A stretch of 64,000 bases of DNA from Blasia pusilla (Eukaryota). The stretch spans positions 28,644,001 to 28,708,000 of the forward strand of contig CM114271.1 of NCBI GenBank assembly GCA_050084515.1. The letters are read 5' to 3'. The notes below the pieces were generated by a model. It was not told the DNA's origin, made no database searches, and worked only from the letters and a program-made list of their open reading frames with translations. Below are positions 5,750-32,503 of this stretch, piece after piece (position 1 is the first letter of the stretch; every line of letters starts with the position of its first letter). Both the position numbers and the translations under genes were made by a program.

Positions 5750-7139
5750 GATATCCCATCTGCTAATCGCATGACGCTTTTCGGTCTATTTTGGACATCA
5801 AATCGATTTTTTTTCATGTCTAAATACCTTCTTCATTCTAATGATTAATTCATTCTCTTAATTCTAGGAACAATTGACATGTGAGGATATGAAAGTAGAT
5901 ATGTAAATTCCAAATTATTTTAGGTTTTGATTTTGATATTTATTCATGGACATAACAAAAGCTCCATTAATAGGGAATTGAAGCCTACGTACATCAAAAG
6001 GCAAATCTTAGTCGGATGCGATCAATGTTAGAATAAAAACCCTATCTCCCATGTTTTTCCCTATGATGATTTATGCATCTATCAAATATTGCATGAAATC
6101 ACAAATCATCAATCTAGTTGCAAATTGGTTAGTTCATATGCCAAAGGTAAGAAAGGAAATGTCCATCCATGGTTAGTAACATGATATTGACAAGCTCCAA
6201 ATTTGCACTCTATCAACATATGAGCAAATACATTAATCTCAAGGAGATGGGACGAAGCTGTTCTAAAATTATTTGCATGGACATATAATCTTATTTAATG
6301 ATGTGTAAAATGAAAAAACTATGGAAAATATTTACCTATGTCACCACACAAGCCATGCATTAAATACTACTCTTACTAGTCCTTCTTTTGGATACAAAGT
6401 TTGTGTCTATTCTTCCTTCCCACCTTTCAAGAGCCAGTAATTTCAATTTGTTGTGAACTACTTTTTCTCCCTCTGTTCATTCAATTGTAGTCTTATAATT
6501 TAAGGATACTTACCCAAAAACAAAAATCTATATTGGGATGGAGGTGCTTCTACCCAAAAAGCTTCAAGCCTTTTAACTGGAAAAAATGAGAGCCAAATTC
6601 CTTCGCATAATGTTATGGTTGCTCATGTATGTTAAACTTTTGTTGTTGATAAAATAACACTTATTTTCCTTTTTAGCTCACATTACTACAATCTTTCCAA
6701 ATCCAATAGCATATTTGGAAATGGACCTTATGTGTGGGACGTATAGATATCGCTACACAATATCCGTTGATGTCATCATCCATAAACTTATAAAAAGGGA
6801 CATCCCATTTAATCATGAAATCCAAACATAAAGATGATCATGCTCGTTCGGCCCTCTTGTTAACCATCTTCTTGTCATCATATCACTCGAACAACTCTAG
6901 ATCTCTAATATATCTCGTATGTACATTTGGGATATATCAATTATCCTCAAAAAACTCAATCGAGAGGTGGAGTCGTCTAAAGTGAGAGGTGTCTCGTTGG
7001 GTTATGAACAATGTAAGCAGGACCATAGTTCCACCGCCTCATGCCAAGAGGTATGAGCCAAAATAAAGGGCAAACATGCTCTCTCAGATTACCCTCAGAC
7101 TCAATAAGTCATTCACCTCTTATCTCCTCGAAAGCACCC

Positions 7140-7775
7140 TACGGATGCTCGTTGATCCCACCTTAAGAACTTAATAGTTGTCGTGCATACATACATCACT
7201 ATCAAAGAGTTGAAGGCAACTCAAGATGTCTTGAAGAATGTGATGAGAGATAGTTCTATTGTGATGATGGATCTTTCCGAATCTATTGTGGATATTCAAG
7301 AGAAGGCATCATTAGTAGCAACAACTTCCAATAGTTCCGGATTGCATGAGGTTGTTGAAACTTTGGAAGTGAGAATTAAATCTTACGTAGAAGTTACAAA
7401 GGTTGCCCATATCTCTTTCTTCCAAGAGCTAAAGATAGAAAAGTAAAAACAACCAATTTGCATGTAGGAAGAACGTGAGAATCTCCGGATCACCAAGAAT
7501 AGAAAATAAATAGGTAAATAATGTTGCCCCAAGTTCTTGGTTGATACACTTCACTTCATAATCCGAACTTGGCTCAAGCTTTTCGCATTGGGAAAAATGG
7601 TATACAACCTCACAATATTCTTGTTAAGTTTGTTGATCAAACTCAACACGATACCACTATGGCTAACAAGGCCATTCTAAAAAGAAGAAGGATATGGTTG
7701 GATCGCGATCTTACACCTCTACAGTTGATGTAGGGCGGAAGGAGCTTGCCAAGGTCAAAGAGGCTTAAGAAGCAT
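7140..7775 (+). mobile_element. LINE ORF1 fragment (coiled coil plus RRM-like region), decayed
   Basis: LAQAFRIGKNG...ILVKFVDQTQHD...IWLDRDLTPLQ; homologous to the minus-strand copy at 55904-56520, which sits next to endonuclease/RT sequence. Confidence 0.75.
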
Positions 7776-9153
7776 CTGGATCCCTCGCCTCCTTGGCCCA
7801 TGAACTGCCATCTCTAAATGAATGGAAATCTGGAGTTGGCCTTGATTCTTGCGATGGAATCCATTTCGGTCGTCTTTCCATCCAAAACTCGTATCTGACG
7901 CAGCAAATTCCGGAAGCATTCAGGATCAGCGAGAAATGCGAGATTTTCCCAGAGTTGTTTCTCCTCAACCGCCGTGATCTCGCCCTGTCCAGGGATTCCA
8001 AGCAATTGTTCACAAATTTGTGATGCCGTTGTGAGCTTGATCACTCCGGGCTTTGAACCCGGAGAGTTTCTGTAGACCTCGGCTACTTTCTTCGCCACAT
8101 CCTCCTTGATGTGTCTTTGAATTGCATCGTCACAGGATGAGTGTGGGAGCCAACATAGACAACCATCCTTGTATACTCTGACGTGGAGCCCAAGTCGTGG
8201 ACAATGAAAAATATGTATGCAGGACACGCTCCAACGCAGAAGGGCGATGCCTGACAATGAGGACATCGATGGCCTCCCGGCGGTATGGTGGCACCGACCT
8301 CGTATGGATTTTTTGCATTCTTGGGAGGGAATTACGACGTATTGACTCGCCCGTTGCGCTCTAGATACGGGCATGCTGGACTTCTACACTCCAAGGCTCC
8401 CACGCATTGGTGGCGGGAGACAATCCAAGGACCATCTCGAATTGAAGCACTGGTCCGTTGAAGAGTGCACCATTGATGACAATCGACTTTCGTCCCATAC
8501 CCTTCAGCGCCCTCCATCCTTATTTTGAGCAGGAGCAAAGCAAGTGGAGGCAACTCAAAAATGCAATTACCATAAATGCGTGGGCGGCTAAATGTCGACA
8601 AGAATGTGCTTGAACATTTTCAAGGCCAGAGACGAAAGCAAACTATTGCCTGATACTCGCAAGAGGAACGAGTAGGGGGACAGAGGGCCCGATTGGTGTC
8701 CGACAGATCCACTGAGGTTGATAACATCCGGAGTCTCTTCAGGAAAAACAACATTGTTACGAGCGTGCAAAGTTGGAGTCAAAGCCGGATCTGCAGAGCT
8801 TGGAGTTGCAAACGTAGAGCTTGGAGCACTAGGAAATTCTAGACGTCTACTTGTAAAACAGACGAATTCACGGGCAGGCCGTAAACTCTGTATTGACCAT
8901 TTGGTAGAGGTAGGAGATTCCATGCTTTACGGTCTGAGGTCACTGGCTGGACCGTCTGACCTATTATGTCTTCCGTACCGTCCACCCTAATATCTTTGGA
9001 TACAAAGATGGTTCCAATTTGAAGAAGAAATCGAACAGACAGAAAATTTTCATCCATTGCTATGAAAGACTCACGAGCTTGGGGTCGAATGATTTCCGAT
9101 TGAGGAAGGGCCGCCAGATGACTGCCACAAGTGAGCTTAACATAATTATCCAT
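7775..9153 (-). pseudogene. N-terminal half of a probable MULE-type transposase with a Cys/His-rich (GCM/CxC-like) domain; frameshifted, cut off by a LINE at about 7775
   Basis: Joined frames give GNCIFELPP...DCHQWCTLQRTSAS...CVGALECRSPACPYLERNGRVN...C..C...H...KVAEVYRNSPGSKP...SRFPFIQRWQFMGQG. The DDE core is not present in the window. Confidence 0.5.
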
Positions 9154-9415
9154 TCCAAGAAGATTCCAACGGGAGGAGATTGAGAATGAGAATATTTAAT
9201 TTCTAGTGAATAGGAAACAGATACTCCTGACAAATTTTTACTGACAAGATGAATTCGGTGGGTGACATTGTCTGACACAATGGATCCAATTCTGAAACAC
9301 ATTCAATTTTGTTGCAATATGTTACCGGATTTGGGAAGCAGAGGGTTGTGCATCACACTTGGAACCTGTCAGGAGTCCTGGCAACTCAAAAATTCCCCGA
9401 AGCTAACCGAAGCCT

Positions 9416-10078
9416 GCAACCCGTCAGCATCGGACGGGTTGCACGCTTATGCTAAACATTGTCGAAGCGAGCAACCCGTCCCTCTCCGACGAGTTGCTCG
9501 GATACCGCTCCTTCTTGCCCAAAGATGCCGGAGGCGTGCAAACCGTCTGTTCCCGACGAGTTCCGCGGGTGCCTCGCCTTTTAGCCCAAAGACGGCGAGG
9601 CGTGCAACCCGTCGCCCTCCAACGGGTTGCGCAAGGGCCTCGCCTTGTGGTGCAGCCAGCCAGACTCCGACGACTTGCACGGGAAGCCCTCGTCCTTAAC
9701 CCTTGATGAGGGAAGCGTGCAACCCAAAGGTCTCCGACGGATTGCCCAAGATTCGTCCCGTTCCCATCCCAAACACGGCGGAGGCGCGCAACATGTCGGT
9801 CTCCAACGGGTTGCGCGGGTACCTCGCGTTCTTTTCCGAAGACGACAGAGGCGCTCAACCCGTCGAAGACCGACGGGTTGCTCGCGCACGTGGCGACGTA
9901 CCCAGGATGGTGGAGGCGCGCAACATGTCGGTCTCCGACGGGTTGCGCGGGTACCTCGCGTTCTTTTCCGAAGACGACGAAGGCGCACAACCCGTCGGTC
10001 TCCGACGGGTTGCTCGCGCACGTGGCGACGTACCCAGGATGGCGGAGCCGCGCAACCTGTCGGGCTCCGACGGGTTGC
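9416..10078. repeat. Array of about 10 copies of the palindrome GCAACCCGTCGGnnnCCGACGGGTTGC at roughly 65-bp period, between the two divergent genes
   Basis: Copies visible near 9416, 9471, 9538, 9604, 9719, 9788, 9856, 9920, 9987 and 10052; includes a roughly 131-bp two-unit tandem duplication. Confidence 0.92.
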
Positions 10079-11671
10079 CATTTTTCACGTCCGGACTTCC
10101 GTAACATCCAGCACGTCGCCATCGAAAGGACGACGGGACCCAACGGTCAGCCCAACGGCTAGAACGTATAAACAGGGCAGAAATCGCTCATTTTCGGTTT
10201 CTCATTTTGCGATCTTCATTCCTCACTCTCCCGCGCAGCAGTTGATCAGATACGATGGGGCATTTCACACGGCCACACATCGCCAGTCGATAGGAGGGAA
10301 CGAGAGCGAGACCGTTTGACGCAACGACAACGAGACGGTTCGACCGAGCGATCGTGGGACGATTCGAGCTACCCATCAAGGCGATTCGAGCTCCCATCTC
10401 GACATCAGCAAGGCGACTGATCAAGGGATTTGTCGTGGACATAGGTGGAGGCATTTCCGGAAAAAATGACAAGGAAAAAATCACAAGCCAACAAGTTTAG
10501 GAGCTTCACTCCGAAGTCCATTAGGACTCCTGCGTCAGCTTCTCCTGGGCCTCGTTCGGCGAATGAAATTAGGTAGCAGGAAATCGAGGAGCGGGAAAGG
10601 GAAGCGGAGCTGCATAACCAAGTGCTTCTTGCGAGACGTGTTCAAGAGGCGCTAGATAAACAGAACGCACAGGCTGAGACGTCGCAGGCCTTGAAGAAAA
10701 GGATCGCCGGATTTAAAAGAGAGAAAGAAGCGCTGGGACGATCGGTGAGGAGGGCAGCATTGGCTAAAGCGAGGAGGGAAAAAGCGATAGCCATTGACGA
10801 TAGCCAAGCCCGTCCAACCGCAAGTGTTGAGATGCGGGAAATGTCCCCCACAAAGTCCGGGGACACAATCAACATAGTGGAAACGCCAGAAGTTGAAATC
10901 GATGACGACGAGGTATGAGGACCGCCTACGAGGAGATGGTGGACATGGCCGAAGAAGCCGGAGAGCGGTCATTCTCGACTCCAAGCCCGGCGGAGGACAT
11001 CGACCTCTATCGGATCGACGAGTTCGCAGTCGATTTGCCAGCTTCTGTCTAAGACAAGTTAGCTGGTCAAGAAACCGACCCCATTTTCGAGCGGGTAAGA
11101 GAGGTTCTGGGTTTTTTGAATTATGTGAATTGCAATTCATTGGGATTTCAGTGTAGCTTATTCCTCTTGTCCCGGTTCTGACAGGTGGTAAAGCAGATGG
11201 CACTCATGGAGGGCCACAACGCCCGAGGATTCCATCATGCGGATTGCGGACAATGGAATACGTCCGCAAATTTCATCCGCGAGGACATCGTGAAGCTAAA
11301 ACAATCGGCGGCGGCAAAGATCTCACGCCGACAACTTTCCTCCCTTCTATGTTTAGCCTTACGACGAGCATGGAACCCAAGCTGGTTACTGAGGAGGACT
11401 TGGAAAAGCTCGACACATTCTCGGAGGATGCGAGACCAGGACTTGAAGGCAAGTTGAGGGCACGGAATTCAGTTGGATGAGGAATGCATTTCTTCATCCG
11501 GGATGGAAATCACGAGTTCATGGCGTGGACCAAGTTTGCGGAGGAGCGGCCCAACTCATTGGAGGCACATTTCTGCGTGAAGGCAGTGGTCCTTCACCCA
11601 TACCCTCATCACATGGCGACGGTGGAGATGGCAATGCATGCCATGAACACGTGAGTATCTTTAACACTTTT

Positions 11672-12392
11672 GCAACTCGTCGGACTCCGACGAGTTGCTC
11701 GATTGATGAATGGGTTAGGTTTGTTTTTGCCGAAAGCAACTCGTCTGACTCCAACGGGTTGCTCGACTGCACGCTTTTTCGGATGTTTTTTTAAGATTGC
11801 AACTCGTCAGACTCCGACGAGTTGCTCGATTGATGAATGGGTTAGGTTTGTTTTTGCCGAAAGCAACTCGTCGGACTCCGACGGGTTGCTCGACTGCACG
11901 CTTTTTCGGATGTTTTTTTAAGATTGCAACTCGTCGGACTCCGACGACTTGTTTGATTGAACATAGATTTAACTAGTTTTTGGCCCAAAGCAAACCGTCG
12001 GAGTCCGACGGGTTGCTCGACACGCCGCCTTGTCAGGATGTTTTTTGAAGCTGTTTTTCCCCAAATCAACCCGTCGGAGTCCGACGGGTTGATTTCGCCC
12101 AAAAATAGTTTCGAGGCAAGCAACCCGTCGGACTTCGACGGGTTGCTTTGGGGAAAAAACCTTCTAAACCTGCAGTCACTCGAGCAACTCGTTGGAGTCC
12201 GACGAGTTGCATTCTTCAAAAAACATCCTCACAAGGCGGCCTATCGAGCAACCCGTTGGACTCCGACGGTTTGCTTACCAGGCATTAGCAAATCTAAATG
12301 CAATCCGTCGGACTCCAACGGGTTGCATCATTTAGCTCGTTGCTAGAATTCAACCTTGAGCTGTGACGACTCGTCGGAGTCCGACGGGTTGC
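11672..12392. repeat. Intronic array of about 12 palindrome copies (about 55-75 bp period)
   Basis: For example caacccgtcggagtccgacgggttg at about 12067 and gcaacccgtcggacttcgacgggttgc at about 12120. Lies inside intron 11651-12436 and includes a roughly 127-bp tandem duplication. Confidence 0.92.
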
Positions 12393-14538
12393 AAGAACCC
12401 ATGTAATTTCCTGACAGTTTGAGTTTGGATGTGCAGGATTGTATCGGAGGGGAAGGTCACCCACCACTGGATCCAGGACTGCGATCGGGTGAGGAAGGTG
12501 CTTACGACGTACGCGAGAGAGTACAGGGGGTTCTTGGGCGATGCCCTTGTCAATCAGATGCTTGCAAAGGGTGTTCAGATTAAGAAGAAAACTTGGGCAA
12601 ACAAGTTTATTTCTCAAGATGCAGCCGTAACCATCCTTTGCTGGTCGAAGATATAGGCCGTGAAGAAAAGCGTTGCACTGGAGCTGGAGCGGAGGGAGAA
12701 GGTATCTGCGTCTGAGCGCGCCAAATTCATCCAAGCTGCAGCACATGCTGCAACGAAATACACGGCGAGCAAGATGCAGCGATACATCAGCATTCTAAAC
12801 CCCGAACTTGGTCCGGAGTTCTACAAGGAGCTCAAGGCGATTATCAAGCGCCCGTGAAGAGGGATGAAGATCCGCATGGTCGGATTGGGAGAAAGTGTCA
12901 TTTGGATCGCGTGCATCGGTTTGCGTTGTCCGGGATAAGCGAGTTCAGGAGGATACGATCGATGAAAATCGATCTCGAGGGCTCAGAGGCCTAGAAGAGG
13001 GCGGCACACCATCCTCCGGTGTGTCCGATCCAGTGATCTCGCATTGGCTACGCCGAATGGTCGTTCCGGGACGCGCGTTGCGGGTAATCGGAAGTCCATC
13101 TTTGGACGATGCGCAAGCGAGCTCGAAGATTAGAGCCCATTCGCCGAAGCAAACCTTGAAAGTTCGGAGATCTCGAGGTTTGGTTCTACGACATCCGGAC
13201 AAGCCAACGAAAAACCAGGATTCAAGACCATGTTCAAGGTTTGCGTCCTCCCTCGGTGAGCTTGACGAAGAAGTAGAGGGGAACAAACGGGATCAAGCGA
13301 AGAAGAAGCGAGATCTACAGGAGCAGACGGCCGATTTTGTTTGACTAAAAGCTGCCCAACGGATGGTCTTCAGGTTCCTCATCCAGTGTAAGAACGCAGG
13401 TACGTGGGGAAAATTACCGGTAGCCTTGAAATTTTGGGCTTCGCCGCCGGATGCAAAGACATTCTCCATGTACGACGTGGAGATGGGGCAGCACATGTCC
13501 GATTGGGAGGTGGAGAATTGCCCCATTTGGCTCGACTTCAACGACCCTGAAGACATCACGGATAAGGACTTACGAGTGCTTCGTGATGCAGTGGCCTCAG
13601 GACAAGACGACATCCCCAATTTTGTCCTGCCTGAAGACTTCTTCGGAGGAGATGCAGTAGAGCAGGCCCACGAGACAGCTAAGTTGGCTTCCAAGGTCCG
13701 CACAGCCAAAGAAAAATCCACAGCGGGTCTCAAAGGCAAGGCGAGGGGAGGGAAAAATTCAGAGGCTGAGTCTTCCCAAAGAGAGGCTGAAGATTCAGGG
13801 CTAGAGGCGGAATCGTCCGGACGAGCGGGGAGAGAGGGTCGGACCAGGTCCTCGGCAAAAAAAACGCCACCAGAATTTGAGGTCATAGAAACCCCGACAA
13901 GCCGTCCCCAGGCTAGGGAGAAGTGGAAGCGAGAGGTGCCCGGGTTGTCCCAAGGAGTATACAGCCCATCATCCTTGGGAAGACACAGACAAACAACGAC
14001 CCGGACAAGCGTTCTCCTTCAGTTCACTCCTTTACTGGATGAGTGAAGGGCTTCAGTTCTCAAGCGTCGACACCAGCCATCAAAAAATTGACAACGCTGG
14101 AACGAAAGCTCCAACGAAACGGGCACGCTGCCTAGACGGTGAATGGAGTGGTCGAAGAGGTTGCGGTGGATCTCTTGATCACCGATCTGCCCTCGGGGTT
14201 GCGACTTTGGGGCGAGAATCCGTCGGACGAGGTACCTGAGTGGAATGTGCCACTCTCTTATGACCAGATTGCACTTTTGTTCTCCTTTGCAGACGCCTAT
14301 CTGAGTGACACGGGCTGGTTCTTGGTGTTGTCTGGAGGGAGCGAGGACGAGCTCTTCAACCTCCAGTGCGTCAAGAGGTCGCTAAAGTGGAGGACGACAC
14401 AATCGTGGATCATAACAAATGAGTACCCACTCCGATCCGCGACGAGTCAGATTCGGGTAAGGCTCAATTCCTGTTCTATAATTTCAATTATATTTTAATG
14501 ATGTGTATAATGAGAGTCAATCTGGGTTTTTTTCAGGA

Positions 14539-14837
14539 GCAACCCGTCGGAAGGCGGACGGGTTTCTTTAGAGAAGCCCATGCTCGGGTGAGAGCAACCC
14601 GTCGGTTTCGGCGGGTTGCATCTTTCCACATACAGGAAAACGCGGTGTACCTGCAACCCGTCGGAACCCGACGGGTTGCTGTTGCTTTTGGTTTTTCCCA
14701 GTTGATTTTGGTTTTTGGATGCAACCCGTTTGATAGCGACGGGTTGCTCTCACGCGAGCATGGGCTGCTCTAGGCCAGCAACCCGTCGCCTTCCGACGGG
14801 TTGCTCACGGAAAAAAACAACGGAGCCCGACGGGTTG
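14539..14837. repeat. Intronic array of 5-6 palindrome copies splitting the MTase-like domain
   Basis: Copies near 14539, 14594, 14653, 14721 and 14778, downstream of the GT donor at 14457. Confidence 0.9.
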
Positions 14838-16319
14838 ATCCAAAGTCTGTTATTGAAAATTTTCTCAAGGCGACTTCTTTAGTTTCTGACATTGTTTCCA
14901 ACGTCTTTGATTTGAGATGGACCGTCCCACGCTCATCGCTTCGGTTCGCCGAGCATAATTTCCAGGTGTTCAAGATCCAGGATCCTGTGGATCCATGCTC
15001 AGATGGGTATAGCTTAGATAGTTTGTACAATTCCCCCCCAAGAATTTACATGCAAGACAGTACCCCACTTCTGGGAGGAAGGGAAAAGTCGCCAGCCTTG
15101 ATGCAAACGCTCATCGAGCTCTGCTCAAGCCCGAGTGACTTGGTGTTCGACTTAGTGGGACATTCAGGGGCAAGTATCAAAGGCGCATGGCAGAGTGGCA
15201 AGAACATTCTCTGCTTCGAGTGAAGGCAGGAACTGTTTGACCTTTGCAAGGAGGCAAAGGCAGAATACGAAAGGCTTGTTGGGGCGTACAACTCTCCACC
15301 GGCCGAGCTCGGTTCAGAGCCACCCTTGGTAGTGACTCCATCGTCACTTCCAACGATTCCCAAAATCGGGAGGGCAAGGCCGAAAGTGATTTTGCAAGAG
15401 CTCTCCAACGATGATGAGTGAGTTCAAAGAACTCAACGACCCAGCTTGACTACAGCGTTTGGAGTAGGGAGTTTTTTTATAATGAGGCAAAAGATTTCAT
15501 AGAATAGATCAAATGTACAGTTCCAAGCTTTTTTCGGATGATATAAAGCAGAAGATTTTTTCGATCGATGGTGGTGCTTGTAAATGTTTGCTGATCATTT
15601 TTTGTCTTTTCGAATGTGATCGTCTCCACGGACTTCTATTTTGCAACCCGTCAAATTTCTCCTGCTTGCAACTTTCACTTTATGACCACTGCAACCCGTC
15701 GGATTTCTCCTCATTGCAACTTTTCGCTTTTTTACCACCTCCAGGCAACCTGTCTGATTCTGACAGGTTGCCTGATCGGACCCTTTCCCTGTTGGTCCAA
15801 CTTAAGAGGCAGTCTGGCGGGCTTCTTCCCTTGGCACCTTCCCCTCAACTTGTAGAGGCAGGCGTAGGCTTCTTTTCTTCTCTTAGACGTGTTGGATTCC
15901 TTCTACCTGTGCGGTTGCCATAATGGTATTACCGGGGATGGAGCAGATATTGATTGTCACATCTGAGTAGCCGATAGGCCGAGATCTATCGTGGATAGGG
16001 CGTAGGAGCCAACGGACTATCTTGAGTGTAACTTTGTCCCACAGTGTCGGATGAGGTTGAGGATAGGTCCATTGTGTCAGGACCGTCGTTTTTAACGACT
16101 TTGATGTTGAGGTCTTTTTGGTAGGGTGACTTGTTGACAGGTCACTGCCCTTGGTAACTGTCTTGCCTTGAGTTACCAAGGGAAGGGCTATTTTTAGGAG
16201 AAGAGCCTTTTGGCTCTTCCCAACCTATATAAGAGAGGCTTTATATGCCGATGTAGATTGAGGAGTGGAGTTTTAGGCCGGGTGTGCCGTTTTTACTACT
16301 CTTTATTTTTACATGAGAA

Positions 16320-19300
16320 AGATGTCAGGGGGCTAGTGGGAATTCGTTGTTTGCAGGTAGGCAAGCGAGTTGCCTCGGTTGGGGAGCCCCTGGAGACGTG
16401 TGTGTGACATTTTTGTGTCATTTTTCTGTTCGGAAGGCCGTGGGCGGAAGCGCTGTCCGTTTTTCTCAGATTTCGTTGGTGCGGATTGTTGGGGGACAGC
16501 AGCCGAGTGTAGCGTATGGTGGGCGTCAGGTGTACGCAAGTGGAGGCGTCGAGAGAGAAGGAACGGGCAGGTTTGGGTCTTGCAGCCTCCGGGGGGCTGT
16601 CAAGTAAAGGCGGCTAGAGTTAGGTCGAAGTTTAGGGTTCGGGGCGCGGACGGGCAGGGCGCGGACAGCAGGCTGGGCGGACGGCAGGGCGCGTGACATG
16701 TGCCCCCCACCCCACCATTTAGGGCCCAAGGGGCCCGCATAGGGCCGCGGTCCAAGTCTTCCCCCCCCTTTTTCCAACGTGGTAAGAGTGGATGCACTCA
16801 TAGCAAACGTGGTAGGACGGACGAGGTCGGTCCGTAACGCAAAGGCGCATGGCAACGTGAGGGCGAGGAGGATGTCGACGTCTTTGAGTGATCGACAAGT
16901 TGACAGCGGGCGTGACATGATGTTTTAGAGGTGCGCATAGGGCGTTGCGAGAGTTTACGCTGGAGAGGCAGTGTGCATGATGCCGACGGGTTGTCCGCAT
17001 CTGTTGACGGGAGGATCGACGTGTTGGTCGAGGGGAGTGTTATGTGGCGGAGATTGTCATATCATGTGGAGGAGTGCATATTGATGGTGCAAAGAGTTGA
17101 GGGCGTGATCAGGTTACCCATTCGAGTCCCTTTTCCCGCACTTTTTGTGTATCATTGAGAGTGTTGGGTATCGGGTAGTAGCTGGTGCTAGATGGGTGCA
17201 GTGATGGTGACGAGTGTAGATTCTTTTCATGTGTAGCATGTTGGTGGATATACGGCGGTTGCCGAGTAGGGGTCGCGTGTATGACCCGAGAGTGTGTCGC
17301 TAGGTTAGGTGAGTCAGTTGGGAGGCTCATGGTGAGCCCGAGTGTTGAGCGTGCGTGAGGCCGGGTATGTCATCACGGGATTGACGTTAGCATAGGTGAG
17401 CTAGTGAGGCGTGTGGGAGACTCTCGGTGAGTCTGAGTGCTTGAGCGGCCGAGAGCAGGGTTTGTCATCACGGCGTTCTTCCAGGGTTCGGAAGAACGGG
17501 GTAGTGCGAGCAGTGGTAGTGGTGTGACACGGAGTGGAGTGAGATACCGAGGGGTTACCAGTGAGGAGCCCCGCGACATCCATCCGTGATTGGATCGTCA
17601 TCACTGGACACTGGGTCTGGTGACGAGATCACCGATAGAGACAATAGTACTTGGCATGAGATGGACGACATGGGCCATCGGGGCATGCGTCGTTTCTCGG
17701 GTGCAGTGGGCACCATCGACTTAGATGATTTCATCCAGGAGTTCGACACATGGTGCGACTTCCAGGAGATACGGACCCCGACACGGTTCAACCCTTTCAT
17801 GGCATGGAAGGGGTTGTTCCAACACTTGGAGGGTCGTCCAATGGATGACTACATGGAGTTCCGATCACTATATTCAGTAGAGATCGATGCCTGGAGGATG
17901 TATTGGGCTCCAGGGTATGTGTCCACTAGTGGTCGCGAGGCATATGATGGGATTGTGAGAGAGAGAGACCCACACCATCGGCCCGGAGACTAGATGGAGA
18001 GGAGGGCAAAGTGACACAAGGCGATGTGGGAGAGACGGTGGTAGAGGGCCCACCGGCTTCAGCCCCACGGTGGAGTTCTTCCGGCGGTTGGGGAAGAGCT
18101 ACTGTAGGCGTACCCATTGACAAGTCAAGAGTCTATACGATTTTCAGCGACGATCGGGTGAGAGTGCGAGAGAGGCATTCACACGCATGAGGAGGCTGAT
18201 CATTGCTACGTTTGGAGGACCGAGGTGCGGTCCCGATTGGTCTGAGGTTATGGACCGAGAACTACGGAGGAGAGTCCGAGATGCGGTCTTTGATTCACAA
18301 CGAAGCCCACATTGAAGGTGGTCTTTGAGTTGTGAGCGTATTGAGCTCAACATGAGTGAGGAGTAGGTAGTGACCGCTGGATTTTCTCGAGAGTCGACGG
18401 GTCCACGAGCGGCGGTGACCCCACCGGTGCAGAGCGAGCACCGAGTACCACGGAGCGGGCGGGCAGTGTGCCTAGAGAGCGGGGCGGGTACCGTGAGCCT
18501 ATGAGGCAACGACCCGCACCTACATATGTTGCCCAGCCAGGACCGATGTGGTCTTGTTGGGCGTGTGGGGGGCCCATAGGCGAGAGGCGCCCACAACATG
18601 GGAGAGGACCACGGCGCCTCGATTGCGCAGACCCAGAGGATGGCTCCACGAGCACCGGTGTGACCATTGCCACAAATATGGTCACACTAGGGATACATGT
18701 TTTGACCTTTCGCGAGGGGCACGCGTCGAGAGGTAGGCCGAGGGCCTGGGGCGGTCGCCCTAGAGGAGGTCGGGAGTTCTTCTTGGGCGTGGTGGTAGAG
18801 GACCACCACCAGCCGGAGAGGAGATGGAGCAGAGCACAGAGCGGCGCTTCTCTCACGCATCGATCGGTTGGAGCGGAGAGGATTGCCGCCATGACGATGA
18901 TGCGGCTTAGGAAAAGGCACGGAGCTGCGGCGGCTAGTGTGACTCGTCTCTACCTCTTACCCCGACCGGGTGAGGATCTCTTCAATATGGGATTCATGTG
19001 TAGTGCGGCCCAGGTTGAGGCACTGCGATGGTGACTTCGGGGGTGCTGCGAGAGGCACCGAGCCATCGAGAGGTGGAGTTGAGATTGACCCACCGAGGGG
19101 ACCGATGGGCGGCGAGCCAGGGTTCCACGATCGTTCACATTGTCGGAGGCACTACACACACCATCGATGGTGCCTCGTTGACCAGCGCGCCTCTGATTCG
19201 AGGCACCTACGTCGGCGTCACGAGGAGTTGGAGTGACAACTCCTATGCGGCTCGAGTGGAGTCGATTGTCGACTATAGTGTTGGAGGTGGCCACTAGAGT

Positions 19301-22300
19301 GAGTCGACTCGCTATTTTCCGCCTTAGAGTTGGCGGCGTTGGGAGTTGGACCAAAAGCGAGGTGTTCCGGTTGGCCGCCACGTTGTGTGAGCGTGGAGAG
19401 ATGAGCGCTTCTTGCTCGAGGTAGTTGAGGAGGTGGTGGACTTTCCTCGAGCCGGTGCTGGGGCGTTCCCCACGAGTCATGGCATCTTGGCGGCGGGCGC
19501 GGTTGGTAGATATGCCACTCGACCGCCATAGAGCGAGCGATGGTGACACTTGGAGTAGTGTTCTTGGATAACCGAGGAGTATTTCGCTTTGTTAGTCCGA
19601 CGGGACAGTATACCACCGCGCAGCGCGCCCTACTTGATTCGGGAGCGCAACCCTTGATGTTAGGAAGCGGCGTGTTTAGCGTTGGGGTTACGGAAGGCCG
19701 ACATTGAGCCTTGTCCCTTCCAGATCTGAGACCTCGATTGGGCGTATCACCCACTCGATATATGACTCGACAGAGATTGTTGTGAGAGTCCAGCCGAGCA
19801 TGCGGCGGATAGTGCTATGGTGCGACGCGTGCGATTACGACACCGGTGGTAAATGCGATGTGTTGGTGGGGAGTGCGATGTTATATCCCCTAGATTCATC
19901 TTGACTTCTCGGGAGGAGACCGTTGCTTATCGGCCAGGATGGCGGTCGGTGACGGTCGGATGAGTCGATTACCCGTGTAGTTTGCGGGACGAGATGGTCG
20001 ATCACGAGGCGAGATGCGGTGACCACGTTGGTGGCTTTCACGAGTAGTAGTGTTGGCGGCCAGAGAGTTGTTGGAGGGGAACGCACATGCGGAGGATGTC
20101 CCGAAGAGCGGATAGTCCCACGGAGAGACAGGCCATGGCGGGTGTCTCTTCCCATGTTAGCGATGCCTCTTCACCATTATGGGGTACGACGCGAGAGCTA
20201 CAGAGGAGTGCCAACGACCTCGTGAGGCAGGCGTGGAGTCATGTTTTAATCCCAGAGCAGCGAGAGTCACGTGGCAATCGGGCTCTTGGAGTGGAGACGA
20301 TGACCCCACTAGATACCACACGTGTTGTGGGGGAGTGCCCAGAGGAGGGTGTTAGGGTGTTAGATCTCTTTGGAGGGATTAGCATCGGATTGGCTGCAGC
20401 ATTGCAAGCGGGCATACGGGTGCATCAGTACCTTTATGTGGAGAGAGATGAGACCGCGCGGCGAGTATCATTACGTCACCTGGCGAGATTGGTCCAGAGG
20501 TATTCTGAGTTGTTGTCGGTATCTGCAGTACGGGGATACCAGCATACGCTACCCGTCGACATATCTTTGGTGGGGGCGCACGATCTGGATAGAGTTGGCA
20601 CCATTCATTTGGTGATTGCTGGATGGCCATATCAGGGTCATTCATCAGCTGGCCGAGGATTTGGATTGCAGGATCCGAGGTCAGGGATGTTTTGGAAGAT
20701 GCTGCGAGTAGTACGACACTTGCAGCAGAGTCAGATATGTTCTCCAGCATATATTTTGGAGAACGTGCCGTTGTTGGGAGATACTCGTGCACGTGTGATG
20801 ACGAGTGTACATCAAGTGAGGTTCTGGTTGGGACCGGCTGTGTTGTTAGATGCAGCGAGAGTTGGGTCACGTGCCCATCATCCACGACTGTGGTGGACGA
20901 ACCTAATACCATCAGAGGTACTGAGTCGAGCCTAGAGTGGAGTCCAGAGAGCACCACATCTCACGGTGGATGCTATTTTGGACTCAGGGCGTTAATCTCA
21001 GGTGGTGACACACGATGATAGACCACCGTTGGCCACGGCCAATGGGGTGGGGGAGTTGAGGGCAGCCTTACCTACGTTGGTGAGCTTCCCAGCATCCCAT
21101 GCCTTTCGTCAGGGAGGGCCAGGCATGATTTGGGATGAGGTGACCAGAGTATTGGAGGAGCCTACAACAATGAGCGCGAGCGTGCCATGGGGTTCACAAC
21201 CAGTACTACGGCGGTGCCAGGGATGACTGAGGCATCACGGAGACAGGTGTTGGGGCAGGCGATGGACCTCAACTGTCTCACATGGATAGTCAGCCTAGGT
21301 ATGGGTGGCGAGAGGCGGACGGATGCGAGTGTCATCCATGCCGTCACGCCCACGAAGTTGGACCACCGCCCTACGTGGTGCAATACGAGGCATTGGTGGG
21401 GGCGAGACGAGGAGAGATAGGCACCCATGGACTTCCTGGGACGTCGTTCGAGCAGAGAGTGCGAAGGCGGCTAGAGTAGCACATGTTCATTTTTCGGATG
21501 TGGAGCATGGTGTAGGAGGTCAGAGTGGAGTGGCTGTTGCGGAGGTGGCTAGGGTTGCTACATAGCAACCAAAGCCGGAGATTGCGTCCTCTTCGGTGAG
21601 GTCACGATGGAGACTTGGGAGCCTGTGATACGTCTCAAGTTGATAGGAGGAGAGCGACGGCGAGTTCATAGGTTTCTGATAGGTAGAGGCTATTGCGCAG
21701 ATTCCACGCCCTATAGATGTGAGTCGAGTCCGAGCATTTCTTGGACTGGCGAACTTCTATCGACGGTATGTCAAGGGTTTTAGTGCGATCGCAAAGTCTT
21801 TGACCTTGTTGACAAGACTTGATCAGGTGTGGTTGTGGGGAGATGATCAGGAGCGAGCATTTCAGGAGCTCAAGGACATGTTGACGTCCTCACCCATTTT
21901 ACAGAGACCGATTAGGGGTCGTCCATTCCAGTTACATACGGATTGGAGCATGTTGGGTCTAGGAGCAGTGCTTACTGAGAGGGATGACGAGGAGAGGGAG
22001 TTCGTTGTGGCTTACGCGAGTCGATCGAACAACATTGCAGAGGCTAAGTACAGGTCCTACGCAGGAGAGTGCTTGGCTGCAGTGTGGGCCGTGGCACATT
22101 TTAGGTGCTATTTATTTGGCAACCCTTTCACACTTATCACTGATCATCAGCCGTTGAAGTGGTTGATGGAGTCCGACAAGCTTACGGGAAAGATTTCCAG
22201 GTAGGCTCTATTACTACAGGAGTATGAGTTTGAGGTGGTTCATAGGCCAGGTCGGCTGAACCAGGATGCGGATGGGTTGAGTCGTAACCCATGTCCGAGT

Positions 22301-23960
22301 TAGAGAGACGTCACGGGAGCTCGATGGCACGGAGAGAGTGATGAGGAGATGGTGCCCGGTTGGCATGCATCTGCCTATCTTTGTTGGTTGACTATGGCAG
22401 GTCAGCCACAGGTGATGACTCCAGTGGTGGGATTGGATGATGAGTCCTTGGATGCGGAGGTTAGTGAGGAGGCGACAAGTGGTCGTGATATCCATGACGA
22501 CGTGGAGGTTGTGGACTTCTTGCGCACAGGCGTCATTGCGAGTACAGTGAGTGCTAGGGAGCGGGATCGGATCCTACAGAGAACCAAGAGGTTCAGGTGG
22601 GAGGGGACTCACATTTTGCGGGTATGGGGAGATGGTAGGATACGAGTGGTACCTCATCCTTCCCAGCGAGCACGTGTAGTGCGACATGCCCATGAGGAGT
22701 TGGAACATTTTGGAGTAAAGCGTACTTACAGCTTACTCCAGGTTCAGTATTGGTGGTGCGGCATGCATACTGGGGTACAACAGTTTGTGGCCTAAAGTAT
22801 GGTATGTGACAGAGTGCGAGCATCCTTCAATGCTCCCACTCCGCAGTTACATCCTTTGCCAATTATGGGTTTAGGTTATCAGTGGAGTTTAGACTTTGCG
22901 GGACCTTTGCCATTGACAGGGCGTCATCATAGGTACGTGTTAGTCATGGTGGAGCATTTCTCCAAGTGGATAGAGTTGGTGGCACTACCAGACAAGGCGA
23001 GCGAGGGAACAGCTTATGCGTTTCTAGATTGTGTGCTTAGTCACTTTGGTGCACCGGCGGAGGTGTTGCCCGACGGTACCGAGTTTGGGGGAGAGCTTCA
23101 GGCCTTGTGTGATCAGGCGCTGATAGATCACCGCACCACGTCCAGGAATCATCCTGAGGCGGATGGATTGGCAGAGAGAGTGGTACAGACGGTGAAGAGA
23201 GGATTGCGCAAGTATGGCTTGCAACGGGGACAGTTGAGGGAGTGGGACCTACAGTTGGCATGGTTGGCTATGGGTTATTGCTTTAGTCGGCAAGCATCCT
23301 TGGCGTCATTTTCACCGTACTTTTTGCTCTTCGGGAGAGAGCTAGATTTACCTGCAGCGATTCGACGTGACATGGCGGAGGTGTTAGATCTTGATGATCT
23401 AGATGTGTGGGTGCAAGCATGTTCTCAGAGGGCGAAGTTTTTCGTAGAGTTATGCCTATGGCCTTTGAGAACTTAGCTATTGCCCAGCATAGAGATACAT
23501 TGAGGTACGCGACCATTAGTGGAGGAGGTTATCGTCCAGGGATTAGGAGGTTTCATCCTGGAGATTACGTGTATTTACAGCAGGCGGCACCCACGACGTT
23601 AGATGTCACTACAGGGGGCACGATCCTACGTGTGCGTGAGGTATTACCGACCGGAGTCCTCATGTTGGAGGGACGAGATGGTATGGTTTGGAAGGATCAT
23701 GTGCGCAATTGTGCGCCATGTCATCTTCCGAACGTAGATGGGACGGTGGATCCGAGCTTGGCTGTGGTACCTGCAGGCTTGAGGTGTATGTTGTGCGGAT
23801 CTGCGAGGGATGCAACCACCATGTTGGTATGTGATCATGTATATGTATGAGTTTATTTTTGTACATGTTTGGATCGACCCGTGTGTGGGGAAGATCGGTG
23901 TTGTGTGGTGTAGATGTGACGAGCAATGTATGTTGTGTAGCGATATGTATGCGCACGACA
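16320..23960 (+). mobile_element. Ty3/gypsy LTR retrotransposon G1: gag - protease - C5 DNA methyltransferase - (RT deleted) - RNase H - integrase - partial PHD - LTR 3' end
   Basis: gag from about 17620 (DLDDFIQEFDTWCD), CCHC knuckle CDHCHKYGHTRDTC at about 18660, protease ALLDSGAQPLMLG at 19627-19665, RNase H LHTDWSMLGLGAVL, integrase WSLDFAGPLP...DGLAER; ends in atgcgcacgaca at 23960 like the other LTRs. The left boundary is approximate. Confidence 0.9.
20345..21300 (+). pseudogene. C5-cytosine DNA methyltransferase domain embedded in gypsy pol (copy G1)
   Basis: Motif I VRVLDLFGGI, II LYVERD, IV IAGWPYQGHS (canonical PCQ), VI YILENV, VIII AHHPRLWWTN, IX-X ERAMGF...RRQVLGQAMD; in-frame stop at 20933. 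Confidence 0.9.
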
Positions 23961-25220
23961 TGATACTGGATGGGTGTCACATTGCGGAGCGTACAAGGTA
24001 TACTGCCGAGGAAGGCGGTGGGACTCGAGACAGGTTACATGGGACCGTTATGGTGTACCTAGTGGGGGCCAAGGCTCTCGAATTCGCCAACATTTTCGAT
24101 CCCCGTCTACAATCGGCCAAAGGAGCCACTTGAATCCCAGGACATTCCTTTGGTACCGTCACCGAGGAGAGTTAGGAGTAAATTTGTAGATGACGAGGCT
24201 GAAGAAATCATAGACTAGGTGAAATGTATATTTCCGAGGTTCCTTCGGAGGTAATAAAGGACGAGATTTTTTCAACCCATAATGGTGTTTGTAAAAGTTT
24301 GCTGGAATATGTTTTTGGACTTGTGGATTGTGTTCTTTTAGCTACTCAAAATTACAATTTCGCAACCCGTATGATTCGACTTTTGCTTTTTGCTTTGCTA
24401 CTTTTAACCATTTCCACGCAACTGCCGGATTCGGCAGGTTGACTCGCTTGAGTGATCGGACTCTATCGGTGAGACCAACTTCTGGCGCATTGTGGCGGGC
24501 TTCTTGACTTTTGGCTCGTTCCCCTTCATTCGTCCAACCAGTTGTAGGCTTCTTTTCTTGTCTAAGATGTGCAGGATTCCTACTACATGTCGGATAGCCA
24601 TTTCGGATTCCCAACCCGTTAGATCGTCGTGGGTGCAGGGTGGAAGAAAATCACTTCTAAAAATCTTTCCTTTCTTATGGTGAGCTTTCTTACGGGTTGG
24701 GAGGGGTGCAGCTTCTCGGTTTCTCAACCTAAGGATCTGATTTGTTCACATTTGAGAAAGTTTGTCTTGAGCAGACACCATTCATAACCGACAGAAAGTA
24801 GGTTATAGGGCAATTTAGGGGAGGCCATGATGCAGGCAACAATCCCTGCAAAAAGAGAGGTACCCATCCAGGTGGTCCTCCAACAAAAATACCAAGGGCA
24901 CTGCTTTTTGTTGACCGAGACAGGGAATGTTAAGAAACTTAGGCTCACATGGAGAGTGATGGAAAAATGTTTAGGGTGGTCTTATGATGTCTCCTTTTTT
25001 CTCGCCCCCAGGAAAGAGGAGGTTTTTTAGGGCCAAATGTGGACCAGTAAATACTCTCTTCTTAAGATTTCCTGAATTTCAAAGCAAACAAAAATTTCAA
25101 ATATGTCAAAAAGTTTTGAAGAGAGGAGGCGGATTTGGCCTTTTTTTTTTTAAGAGAGACTCTCCTCTCTTCCTCTCTTCCTCTCCTCTCTTACTCTCTC
25201 TTGTCAGAATACCAGCCCCC
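23961..25220 (+). mobile_element. DNA transposon copy C: terminal about 1.26 kb of the palindrome-bearing element
   Basis: Aligns by eye with 47300-48939 (with an internal difference) and ends in a CT-rich tract plus GAATACCAGCCCCC. Confidence 0.85.
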
Positions 25221-28200
25221 ATCCTCAGCTTGGGAGTGGCTGAGTAGCGTCGTATGAGATCGCGACAGATCACAGCGGTTGCGTTGGTGAGCCCCATGCC
25301 TACCGAGACGGTGGAGGCAGTGGCGGGGGGCGAGACCCGAGGAGATCTACGCACCAGGGGAGATCGGAAGAGACACCCTTGGACTTCTTAGGATGTTTTG
25401 AAGGTACGCAAGGAGATGATAGCCACAGCATCGAGCGTGGTTTTGGGCACTGCACGTGGAGGAGAGTTTGCAGTTGGCTATAGGAGAGCGGCCGAGTGTT
25501 GTTGTTCGAGAGGGTTGCACCATAGCAACCACCGATACCCGCGCCGGAGAGTCCTACCGTAGTCACGATGGAGACTTGGGAGCCAGATATGGGCCCTAAG
25601 TTGACAGGAGGAGAGCGGCGCCGAAAACATCAGTTCCTCAGGAGTTATAGGAGTTGCTTTGCGTTTAGCATGGAGGATTTGGGTACGTTGTAGGGACCGG
25701 GGATCCGCATTGAGTTGTCGAGTGATATGCCGATCTTTGAGCGACCCCTACAGTCTGATGATTTGGAGAGGGCTCTGATTCAGAGTAGGAGCCAGGACTT
25801 GGTCAAAGGAGGACTAGTGGAGATGTCGCATGGGGAGTATGCATCTGCCACTGTCATGCCCGCCAAGAAGGATGTGCATGGCAACTGGATGGATAGGCGG
25901 ATGTGTGGGGATTACCGACCTATCAATCGGCAGACGAAGTCCGATAGGTATGCCATGCCCACCCCTAAGGAGATCTTTGATGCGATTGGTCACGCAAAGG
26001 TCTTCAGTTCATTGGATTTGCGAGCCGAAGACCATCAACTGCCTATCAGATTGGAGGACAGGCAGAAGACGGCATTTTGGGGCATCGATCCTCACGGGAA
26101 GGATTGTTTGTACCAGTGGCGGTTCTTACCATTTGGTTTAAAGAATGCCCCGGCTGAGTTTCAGAGGGTCATGGATAGGATCTTGGCTGGTCTGGATTTT
26201 GCTAGGTGTTATATTGATGACATCGTAGTCTTTAGCGCCACGGTTGAGGAGCATGAGCAACATCTAGAGGAGGTGTTTCGACGATTGCAATTACAAGGGC
26301 TGAAGCTACATCCAGACAAGTGCAAGTTCTTCTACGACCAGATTGAGTACTTGGGTCATACGATATACCCAGGGGGCCTTGGTGTTCAGCAGATGAAGGT
26401 AGAGGCTATCTCACGCATTCCACGCCCTACAGATGGTGGCTTACGCTAGCCGCTCGAACAACGTTGTAGAGGCGAAGTACAGCTCGTATGAGGGTGAGTG
26501 CTTGGCTGCGGTGTGGGCTGTCGCGCATTTCAGGTGTTACTTATTCGGCAACCCCTTTACCATCATCACTGATCATCAACCACTGAAGTGGTTGATGGAG
26601 TCCGACAAGCTTACAGGGAAGCTTGCGAGATGGGCTCTGTTGTTGCAGGAGTATGATTTTTAGGTGGTACATAGACCTGGGATGCTCAACCAGAATGCAG
26701 ATGGGTTGAGTCGTAACCCATGCCCAAGTTAGCGAGATGCGGCTGGAGCTCGATGGCATGGAGAGAGTGATGCGGAGTTGGTGCCAGGATGGCACGCGTC
26801 AGCCTATTTAGGCATGTTGGCTATGGAGAGCCAGAGTGTGGAGACTTCGATGGCGAGGTCTAGTGGAGAGTCCTTGGATCCCGAGGCCAGTGAGGACACG
26901 ACAAGTGGCCCAGATATTCATGATGATGGAGTAGTCTTAGAGTACCTTCATCTTGGCGACCTTGCGAGCACCATGGATGCTAGAGAGCGGATCGGATCCT
27001 ACAAATGGGCGAGCGGTTCCGTTGGGAGGGGACACATGTTTTGAGGGTTTGGGAGGATGGCAGAGTACGCGTAGTGCCGTATCCTTCGCAGAGAGCACGA
27101 CTAGTGCAGCATGCCCACGAGGAGTTGGGTCACTTTGGGGTGAAGCGGACGTATAGCTTGCTCCAAATTCAATATTGGTGGCGAGGCATGCAGACTGACG
27201 TTCATCACTTTGTTGCCAGGTGCATGGTGTGTGATCGGGTCCGAGCATCGTTCAATGCTCCGACTCCACAGTTGCATCCATTACCGATCATGGGCTTAGG
27301 GTATAGATGGAGTTTGGATTTTGCACGACCTTTGCCCTTGACAGAGCGTCACAGTCGTTATGTGTTGGTGATGGTCGAGCACTTCTCGAAGTGGATCGAG
27401 TTGGTTGCATTGCCTGACAAAGCGAGTGAGGGAGTAGCTGATGCCTTCCTTGACAGAGTGTTGAGTCATTATGGCGCACCGGATGAGGTGTTGACAGACC
27501 AGGGTACCGAGTTTTGCGGTGAGTTCCACGCCTTGTGTGATTAGGCATTGATCAACCACCGCACGACTTCGCGAGATCATCCTAAGGCGGATGGATTAGG
27601 GGAGAGAGTTGTGCAGAAGGTGAAGAGGGGTTTACGCAAGTATGGCTTGCAGAGAGGTCACCTAGGAGATTGGGACCTCCAGTTGCCATGGTTGGCGATG
27701 GGATATAGATTCAGCAGGCAGGCATCCTTAGCGTCTTGTTCACCGTACTTGCTACTTTATGGCGAGAGCCGATTTACCTGCGGCCATTCGTCGAGATCTT
27801 TGGTGAGGTGTCTTTGAACCTTGATGACCGGATGTATGGGTGCGAGCATGTTCTCAGTGAGTTATTTCGAGAGTGATGCCCATGGCGTTCGAGAACTTGG
27901 CGATTGCACAACATCGGGATACGTTGAGGTATCGACTATTCGAGGTGGTGGTTATCGACCAACTATCCGGAGGTTTCATCAGGAGATTATGTCTACTTGC
28001 GTGACGGCAACGGCGGCGTTGGATGTGCTGCAGGCGCACTATCCACGAGTGCGTGACATTTTGCCAACGGGTGTTCTCTTCTTTGGAGGGACGCGCGATG
28101 GTATGGTATGGAAGGACCATGTGCGTAATTGTGCGCCATATCACCTTCCTAACATTGATGGTACGGTAGATCCGAGTTTAGCGATAGTTCAAAGGCTTGC

Positions 28201-29776: not shown

Positions 29777-29779
29777 GGG

Positions 29780-32275: not shown

Positions 32276-32284
32276 AGAAAAAAA

Positions 32285-32503
32285 TTCTATTAATAAAAAC
32301 AAAGAAAAATAGGTAAAAACCCTAGTTTTCCCGAGTAATCAAATAGTCGGGAGCCGCAGCCGTAGCGCATTCTCGTATGTCGAGTTATCTCCATGTTCAG
32401 GTTCCATCGAAGCTGTTATGTGAGTGCACGGACGGACTAGGCCACTTTGTATCTCTAAGTTTTGTAAAGATTTCAGTGATTTAGTCACTTTCTGTTTTCT
32501 CAC
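32285..32503. repeat. Dispersed repeat of about 200 bp; inverted copy at 54412-54610
   Basis: Long near-identical reverse-complement match (aaaaccctagttttcccgagt...gcacggacggactaggccactttgtatct...ttttctcaca). Confidence 0.85.

Follow-up and report, generated by a model that had tools for sequence, protein, structure and literature searches.

In Ectocarpus the 21.5 kb Sola1-1_Ec32 family encodes, opposite its transposase, an accessory protein of 1104 aa that combines a ParB-like part with an N4/N6 DNA-methyltransferase (PMC12477816). Giant Plavaka (EnSpm) elements of the red alga Bostrychia, with homologues in Plavaka and Mutator elements of Chondrus, encode PAG2, in which PF01555 is joined to SET, and PAG3, in which a ParB-like domain is joined to a 2OG oxygenase; tandem arrays of inverted repeats adjoin PAG3 (bioRxiv 10.1101/2025.02.11.637652). 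Both reports propose that such proteins bind and modify their own element, and both draw the analogy to VANDAL21 and its protein VANC of Arabidopsis, a sequence-specific protein encoded by a transposable element (TE); its counterpart is a set of tandem repeats that diverge rapidly and lie in non-coding DNA of the same element (PMC10398659). Dam-type methylases in fusion with a helix-turn-helix domain of the ParB type are described from chlorophytes and chytrids, together with inactive methylase domains of DIRS1 elements (PMC4738411). Here we analyse a 64,000-nucleotide stretch of contig CM114271.1 (the window), which is eukaryotic and repeat-rich. We consider it somewhat better than an even chance that positions 7776-15921 hold a copy, truncated and inactivated by mutation, of a mobile-element family of high copy number whose cargo protein would bind palindromes of the family itself. 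Large cut-and-paste DNA transposons are the class to which the family most probably belongs.

The idea of a self-binding or self-modifying transposon cargo was proposed only in 2025, for algae and without a bench test. The family described here, in which a single 27-bp palindrome persists across two diverged lineages alongside a protein that was under selection, offers an explicit object on which to test it.

The cargo gene and its palindromes

From the sequence and its reading frames we read a gene of four exons on the plus strand, with GT-AG introns, matching phases and exons that total about 1,100 codons (Table 1). The stretch 11516-15678 of this gene region (copy 1) has a paralogue (copy 2) at 43110-47741, and in aligned blocks of 2,073, 538 and 192 nt the two are 73.7%, 79.7% and 76.6% identical, respectively. 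The differences between the copies, counted in 765 aligned codons, are distributed 153/152/343 over the three codon positions. The strongest signal comes from the ParB-like exon 2 (4/3/20) and from the exon part with the N-terminal half of a methylase-like domain (16/7/51). Purifying selection acted on the cargo gene during the divergence of the two lineages, before the gene decayed. Copy 1 now contains at least eight disabling lesions, namely in-frame stops (10574, 11478, 12654, 13342 and 15221), a pair of frameshifts in exon 3 and, where exon 4 begins, a deficit of 2 nt. The disabling lesions of copy 2 differ from these, and it has Gly at the position of the TGA 15221 of copy 1; because the lesions differ, both copies are independently decayed pseudogenes.

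As a gene model, the divergent spliced gene postulated in the first-pass annotation is thus upheld by the intron borders, the phases and the codon differences, and also by RNA reads at one donor site. Two reads of run X20 use the donor of intron c (14456|14457) and join 14456 to a variant of 14917-14948; the RNA support for this intron is weak because two reads are under our three-read rule. The RNA runs gave sparse reads of 95-99% identity, and no splice joint reached three reads in them.

The second component of the locus is a 27-bp palindrome, GCAACCCGTCGG-N3-CCGACGGGTTGC. With up to 3 mismatches it occurs 34 times in the 64-kb window versus 0 expected from 100 shuffles, and with up to 6 mismatches we counted 52 non-overlapping instances, distributed over 9416-15771 (28), 43276-48082 (21), 57814 (1) and 63783-63900 (2), with none elsewhere. 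The half-site of 12 nt gave 101 matches, whereas 50 shuffles gave 3.2 on average and never more than 8; of the 101, 58 lie between 9 and 16 kb and 31 between 43 and 49 kb. Every palindrome instance is non-coding, located between the genes, within either of two predicted introns or 3' of the stop codon, and all belong to one repeat family. The earlier statement that dozens of copies of one 27-bp palindrome are confined to non-coding DNA is therefore borne out.

In addition to the array between the divergent genes, intron b holds 12 palindromes at 11672-12392 with a median spacing of 64 bp, and intron c holds three (14653, 14721 and 14778) besides degenerate ones. The tandem units of copy 1 are 63-67 bp long, with higher-order repeats of 127-132 bp. 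Palindromes occupy the same non-coding places in both copies, namely introns b and c and the 3' subterminal region, and copy 1 has the array in the divergent promoter region as well. The copies are 26% diverged; the palindrome consensus has been kept while the surrounding intron DNA barely or no longer aligns. Helical phasing of the sites was considered and rejected, the spacing of 64-66.5 bp in copy 1 being irregular in copy 2. In a test for CpG decay, C>T/G>A changes numbered 5.0 per CpG column versus 3.8 per non-CpG C/G column; this excess is only mild, and we therefore make no claim about methylation. A search of metagenome collections with a degenerate palindrome pattern gave 0 matches.

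We infer that the cargo protein binds these palindromes. Alternatively, the arrays could be binding sites of the transposase or of a TnpA-like factor, in the form of subterminal or internal repeats used for synapsis, with a different role for the cargo protein. In En/Spm elements, TnpA-type subterminal repeats serve synapsis. Palindromes indeed lie near the terminus of the subterminal region 3' of the gene, called X below (47705-48082 and 63783-63900), and beside a SWIM-like fragment (57814), and the protein of the minus-strand gene is Cys/His-rich and could bind DNA. However, 23 of the 28 palindromes of copy 1 are in the promoter region and in intron b, far from the ends, no transposase was identified in the window, and the published algal inverted-repeat arrays adjoin a ParB-like gene (bioRxiv 10.1101/2025.02.11.637652). 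We regard this alternative as unlikely.

Still less probable, in our view, is that the arrays are satellite-like tandem repeats homogenised by unequal exchange, which, if functional at all, would act as hairpins in single-stranded DNA or in RNA, such as precursors of small RNAs. The tandem units with their higher-order repeats have the form expected for such an origin, and each site would form a hairpin with a 12-bp stem in transcripts of the two introns. An analysis of covariation between the palindrome arms, using 46 of the 52 palindromes (the six with 6 mismatches were left out), gave 11 cells changed on both sides of a pair versus 5.6 +/- 2.1 expected, a value reached by 9 of 500 shuffles, but only 4 pairs with a change on both sides versus 4.1 expected. 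Covariation is not established, because the number of pairs equals the expectation and the kinship of the tandem units inflates the cell count. Moreover, the consensus is common to two copies diverged by 26% although their spacers no longer align, and the spacing is not conserved in copy 2. Binding of the palindromes by the cargo protein remains the explanation that we prefer.

Table 1. Positions of the two copies, their parts and other segments in the window
Feature	Position	Strand	Remarks
Cys/His-rich ORF set	7776-9195	-	at least 3 frames, about 445 codons; cut at the 7775/7776 junction
Intergenic palindrome array between the divergent genes	9416-10078		11 palindromes, median spacing 66.5 bp
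Candidate exon 1	10466-10912	+	Lys/Arg/Glu-rich; in-frame TAG 10574-10576; donor GT at 10913
Intron a	10913-11183	+	GT-AG
Exon 2	11184-11650	+	ParB/Srx-like motif region FFIRDGNHEFMAW at 11481-11650; in-frame TGA 11478-11480
Intron b	11651-12436	+	GT-AG, phase 2
Long exon 3	12437-14456	+	TAG 12654, TGA 13342, two frameshifts; 14136-14456 is the methylase-like N-half
Intron c	14457-14916	+	donor and acceptor read from the sequence
Exon 4, methylase-like C-half	14917-15421	+	TGA 15221-15223 (Gly in copy 2); 2-nt deficit near the start
3' region of copy 1, homologous to X	15422-15921	+	2 degenerate palindromes
Different high-copy repeat, outside the family	15922-16351		k-mer depth 58,884; follows copy 1
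Fragment of X with terminus	23961-25220	+	between two truncated Gypsy-like copies
Copy 2	43100-48939	+	gene from mid exon 2 on, same intron arrays, complete 3' region X ending in CT tract + GAATACCAGTCCCC
SWIM-like C-terminal ORFs	56723-58066	+	CxC...CxH pattern in 56723-57632; one palindrome at 57814; CT tract 57983-58066
Last 180 bp of X with terminus	62440-62619	+	
Inverted copy of X	62939-64000	-	95.8% identical to 47865-48940; runs off the window end

Domains of the encoded protein

Beta-class N6/N4 methylases contain motif IV, (D/N/S)PP(Y/F/W), and the S-adenosylmethionine (SAM)-binding motif I, FxGxG. The C-terminal 220 residues of the cargo protein form an N6/N4 amino-methylase-like domain of the beta class, in which motif IV precedes motif I. 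Exon 4 matched Pfam PF01555 with E 2.6e-4 and 21.4 bits over profile positions 165-220 of 221 (the raw open reading frame (ORF) gave E 0.01) and matched six PHROG methyltransferase families, the best being phrog_3008 with E 7.6e-6. In the PDB, all four matches of exon 4 at E up to 10 were M.RsrI or DpnA, as were four of the six obtained with a profile of the two copies. The N-terminal half at the end of exon 3 gave no match with Pfam, PHROGs or NCBIfam profiles. Using the protein-language-model features of the Atlas, 24 of its 30 nearest named clusters were PF01555, with a top score of 0.91. On the basis of these clusters and of the profile matches of the C-half, the end of exon 3 and exon 4 are consistent with a single beta-class domain, of which they would encode the N-half and the C-half. 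The order of the parts is that of the beta class, with motif IV first, followed by the target-recognition region and then motif I, the exon with the N-half lying 5' of the exon with the C-half.

The motifs themselves, judged by eye from an alignment to M.RsrI against the consensus, depart from those of an active enzyme, whereas the motif order does not. Motif IV reads DLPS in both copies, so that the first proline and the aromatic residue are missing. At motif I, where M.RsrI has FAGSG, the alignment shows VGHSG for copy 1 (within VFDLVGHSGAS of exon 4) and VGLLG for copy 2, and the first glycine of FxGxG is thus replaced by His or Leu. The exon with the N-half shows 80% amino-acid identity between the copies, and since DLPS is identical in both of them we take it as the selected state of the family and not as decay. 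The domain is probably non-catalytic or at least very unusual, and its conserved DLPS makes one ask whether cargo proteins of this type deposit a mark or act by DNA binding alone.

An active enzyme with a non-canonical motif, writing N6-methyladenine (6mA) or N4-methylcytosine (4mC) on the palindromes of its own family, would agree with the purifying selection and the codon differences of the N-half and with a DLPS that is the working state of the family, and for the algal proteins a 4mC or 6mA activity is predicted (PMC12477816). The missing residues of motif IV and the replaced glycine of motif I speak against it, and the DIRS1 methylase domains are an inactive precedent (PMC4738411); we consider an active enzyme very unlikely.

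The N-terminal part of the cargo protein may be a ParB/Srx-like DNA-binding module, which is only a lead. With the Atlas features, DUF6551 scored 0.92 for the exon 2 region and made up 13 of the 30 hits, ParB_N clusters reached 0.89, and the ten best hits all come from one family or clan. A ParB/Srx-like stretch, FFIRDGNHEFMAW, with a DGNHE motif was seen by eye. The first-pass annotation had named a ParB/amino-methylase cargo; the amino-methylase-like domain is recovered by PHROG, Pfam and PDB matches, while for ParB the Atlas lead and the motif seen by eye are what we obtained.

We propose the following mechanism. The N-terminal ParB/Srx-like module would bind the palindromes as a dimer, in the way ParB binds parS, and such binding would let the cargo protein recognise copies of its own family. 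The methylase-like domain would serve as a non-catalytic DNA- or SAM-binding module more likely than as an active writer of 6mA or 4mC, because both copies have DLPS and a damaged FxGxG. The outcome would be an element-specific control of chromatin or transcription, or of the assembly of a transposition complex. Such a role has been proposed for the ParB-like, DNA-modifying accessory proteins of giant transposons in algae and is demonstrated for VANC of VANDAL elements.

Ends, copy number and class of the element

The terminus of the element, GAATACCAGCCCCC, was found at 25207, 48926, 62606 and 62939(-), four matches versus 0.29 expected. Region X ends with a CT tract plus GAATACCAGCCCCC at 48939 (copy 2), 25220 and 62619 on the plus strand, and the inverted copy has it at 62939. 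We take the CT-tract terminus as a real end of the element because each occurrence then continues into unrelated flanking sequence. The four shared termini reported earlier are therefore real ends, but none lies inside 7775-16305. A degenerate inverted terminus-like string at about 16323-16340 was also considered as the end of copy 1 and rejected; it gave no match at up to 2 mismatches, it lacks a purine tract, and it is followed by low-copy DNA.

The boundaries drawn at first, 7775 and 16305, stand on the left side. The junction 7775/7776 is real because the homology to another repeat stops there (7224-7775 versus 56528-55972, 79.8%). On the right side the homology to the family is lost at about 15921 and a different repeat follows, for which we found no relative elsewhere in the window. 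This stretch, 15922-16351, has the highest RNA read depth of the mapped region, and loose read ends from it match near 23835-23910, the end of a Gypsy-like copy.

The inverted copy of X at the window end fits a long terminal inverted repeat (TIR) of the left side, or equally an inverted right end. At 62606-62952 two X termini are oriented toward each other, 319 bp apart, and the spacer holds the inverted repeats GGGCCTGCAAAAATTGGTC... and ...GCCCGCAAAAATTTGGTCC; the arrangement may be the product of two neighbouring insertions or of a foldback rearrangement.

In a comparison covering 39,265 contig pieces, the summed k-mer depth in DNA run X1 was 9.7x10^3 to 5.9x10^4 across most of 7668-16351 and lower over the arrays (from about 10^3 over the stretch as a whole), versus 826 immediately left of it and 2 within 16686-17000; because of this depth we regard the family as very abundant. 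RNA reads over both genes are at a low level and follow the two gene orientations, and at 7776-9195 the first mate is mostly on the plus strand.

The minus-strand gene had been described as a Cys/His-rich, transposase-like gene. Cys/His-rich ORFs are present at 9195-7814 and stop 38 bp short of the 7775/7776 junction, but neither Pfam nor protein searches gave a transposase match. Three RNA reads of run X21 join 9080 to 14138, a deletion derivative that contains part of the minus gene and part of the methylase region; they are modest evidence that the minus gene and the cargo gene are linked in other copies.

Transposases of Mutator-like elements (MULEs) carry SWIM fingers. Of the SWIM C-terminus that had been placed at 56825-57634 with palindrome and CT tract, the palindrome at 57814 and the CT tract at 57983-58066 were recovered; the SWIM match itself (57285-57632) has a Pfam E value of 0.014 and 15.3 bits versus a gathering score of 19.6. 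In the window comparison the fragment showed no likeness to the family beyond the one palindrome and the CT tract, and the ORFs scanned gave no Pfam match to MULE or FAR1. It is possibly the transposase end of a related element.

Truncated Gypsy-like copies with RVT_1, RNase H, Integrase_H2C2 and rve domains lie at 18000-23835, 25222-31571, 48940-51200 (-) and 58069-62438. Upstream of the reverse transcriptase they have a C5 cytosine DNA-methylase domain (20051-20935, E 8.7e-7; 58618-58998, E 1.1e-4), by which they resemble the Gypsy-Dnmt3 elements of the charophyte Klebsormidium (PMC5890265). Two unrelated repeat families of the window thus each have a DNA-methylase-like domain. At 30470-30610, 3' of the integrase region, a Cys-rich stretch (CMLCG...CDGC...WHMAC...CPRC) has by eye the look of a PHD-type finger.

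That the ParB-methylase gene and X belong to, or were mobilised by, this neighbouring retroelement with its C5 methylase, and not to a DNA transposon, is the least probable of the explanations considered, for although X or its terminus adjoins Gypsy-like fragments at 23835/23961, 25220/25222, 48939/48940 and 62438/62440, the CT tract at 58066 adjoins another copy, and Klebsormidium Gypsy-Dnmt3 elements have unusual DIRS-like repeats (PMC5890265), the Gypsy breakpoint is different each time, the longest Gypsy copy runs about 1 kb past the breakpoints in sequence unrelated to X, the Gypsy interiors hold no palindromes, and three sense-strand introns kept in two diverged copies are unexpected for an element copied from RNA. 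The adjacency is in part expected because about 30% of the window is Gypsy-derived. X as a long terminal repeat of the Gypsy-like element was likewise judged unlikely, on the varying breakpoints and the Gypsy sequence that continues past them unrelated to X.

Several results weigh against the reading of 7776-15921 as a copy of a self-recognising transposon. Both copies of the gene for the proposed DNA-binding protein are dead. The Atlas feature overlap was 144-145 of 256, versus at least 170 in nine of ten same-family hits. For the N-terminal part, Pfam, PHROGs, NCBIfam and PDB sequence searches of the exon 2 region found no ParB, and the AlphaFold2 model of this region was unusable with a pLDDT (predicted local distance difference test) of 35.5. 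The conserved region after the ParB-like motif was modelled as all-helical with a pLDDT of 48.8, too low for a fold search. For the methylase-like domain, the PF01555 score on the half domain is under the gathering score (21.4 versus 26.7 bits), and a profile of the N-half gave only indoleamine dioxygenase noise in the PDB. A search with 14774-15223 among 1.84 billion representative proteins had two matches, both to repeat proteins; word-index protein searches with 7814-8383(-), 14136-14447 and 56723-57262 found no relatives; and a metagenome scan with protein profile A2 had 597 pattern matches, of which 0 were confirmed. The minus-strand ORFs showed no Pfam family above noise and no protein homologue. 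The RNA depth is about one read or less per bin, and every X terminus in the window adjoins a Gypsy-like fragment, which leaves some room for a retroelement link. The DDE core proposed between the Cys-rich and the SWIM parts did not appear in the larger ORFs scanned across the window, although the copies are truncated and its absence from the whole family is not implied. The window also holds no complete copy, no TIR pair and no target-site duplication (TSD). Since a transposase domain and all of these features are missing from the window, the class of the element is unproven, and the window with its dead copies cannot by itself carry a strong claim.

A Pif1-like helicase fragment of Helitron type at 41063-43199 (-) cuts copy 2 upstream (PIF1 E 9.5e-27 and 5.6e-24; Pif1_2B E 1.7e-16). 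The only clear non-repeat gene that we saw is an apparently intact LCAT / phospholipase A host gene with two long exons at 38166-40118 (-) (Pfam LCAT E 6.9e-41 and 3.3e-6). A repeat family at 7156-7775 (+), 55057-56528 (-) and 31794-32510 has coding-level similarity among its copies and looks by eye like a long interspersed nuclear element; it gave no Pfam match. Tandem repeats are present at 34508-35402 (341 bp, 2.6 copies) and 53276-53727 (243 bp, 1.9 copies). In all three RNA runs the reads at 7020-7052 are confined to this 33-bp block, with consistent loose ends on both sides, as a small spliced exon would show. Rfam and tRNA scans of the window found nothing.

Comparison with described elements

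The architecture of the family had been thought undescribed. It is not new, because it is already in print for brown, red and green algae (2025; PMC12477816 and bioRxiv 10.1101/2025.02.11.637652). The claim of novelty thereby falls under a refuting condition named in the first-pass annotation itself. The family is a further example of the published algal giant-transposon arrangement and not a new system. The reports in the literature searched are from algae only, with none of this architecture in a land plant; if the host belongs to the land plants or to algae closely related to them, this type of cargo would have a wider range than is known now.

The protein resembles that of Sola1-1_Ec32 in its length of about 1,100 aa, in the combination of a ParB-like part (here a lead) with a methylase domain, and in its position in a large repeat element opposite a second gene, and the same idea, binding and modification of the own element, was proposed there (PMC12477816). 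Unlike in Ectocarpus, the opposite-strand gene has no transposase match and motif IV is DLPS; the two are likened by description and not by sequence. Defined palindrome arrays are documented here, whereas the available text for Ectocarpus mentions none (PMC12477816).

With the red-algal elements the family has in common the tandem inverted-repeat arrays beside a ParB-like gene (here again a lead). In red algae the two domains are located in separate proteins, together with SET and 2OG oxygenase, whereas here they would be in one protein, and Pfam scans of the ORFs of the family found no SET or 2OG domain. The arrays of the present family occupy two introns and the divergent promoter region, unlike the arrays adjacent to PAG3 (bioRxiv 10.1101/2025.02.11.637652). 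In the chlorophyte and chytrid cases, amino-methylases derived from prokaryotes or phages are tied to ParB modules in eukaryotes, and the DIRS1 domains are a precedent for dead methylase domains kept in mobile elements; the methylases of that report are of M.EcoKI/TaqI-like or PCIF1-derived groups, whereas the domain found here is of the PF01555 M.RsrI/DpnA type (PMC4738411).

Several traits seen in the window are MULE-like, namely a SWIM-like CxC...CxH C-terminus of an ORF that reads toward a CT-tract end, Cys/His-rich N-terminal ORFs and a terminus that starts with a G run. Unlike MULEs, the family shows no DDE core, TIR pair or 9-11 bp TSD in the window, and the SWIM match is below threshold. 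Arabidopsis VANDAL MULEs encode VANC anti-silencing proteins that bind short motifs amplified in the non-coding DNA of the element. The likeness to VANC is a functional analogy with no evidence of homology; VANC is neither a ParB nor a methylase, and binding and anti-silencing are shown for VANC (PMC10398659) and only proposed here.

A bolder version is conceivable, if doubtful: the locus may represent a giant, possibly Mutator-like, transposon family of streptophytes or land plants whose ParB-like/pseudo-methylase protein assembles on 27-bp parS-like arrays in its own promoter, introns and subterminal DNA and thereby shields the copies from silencing or licenses transposition in a family-specific manner. 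It would then be an independent, prokaryote-derived counterpart of VANC and the first case with a defined candidate site and a selected, non-canonical DLPS. Taken together, what distinguishes the family from the described systems is its sharply defined 27-bp site, the location of arrays inside introns and the conserved non-canonical catalytic motif.

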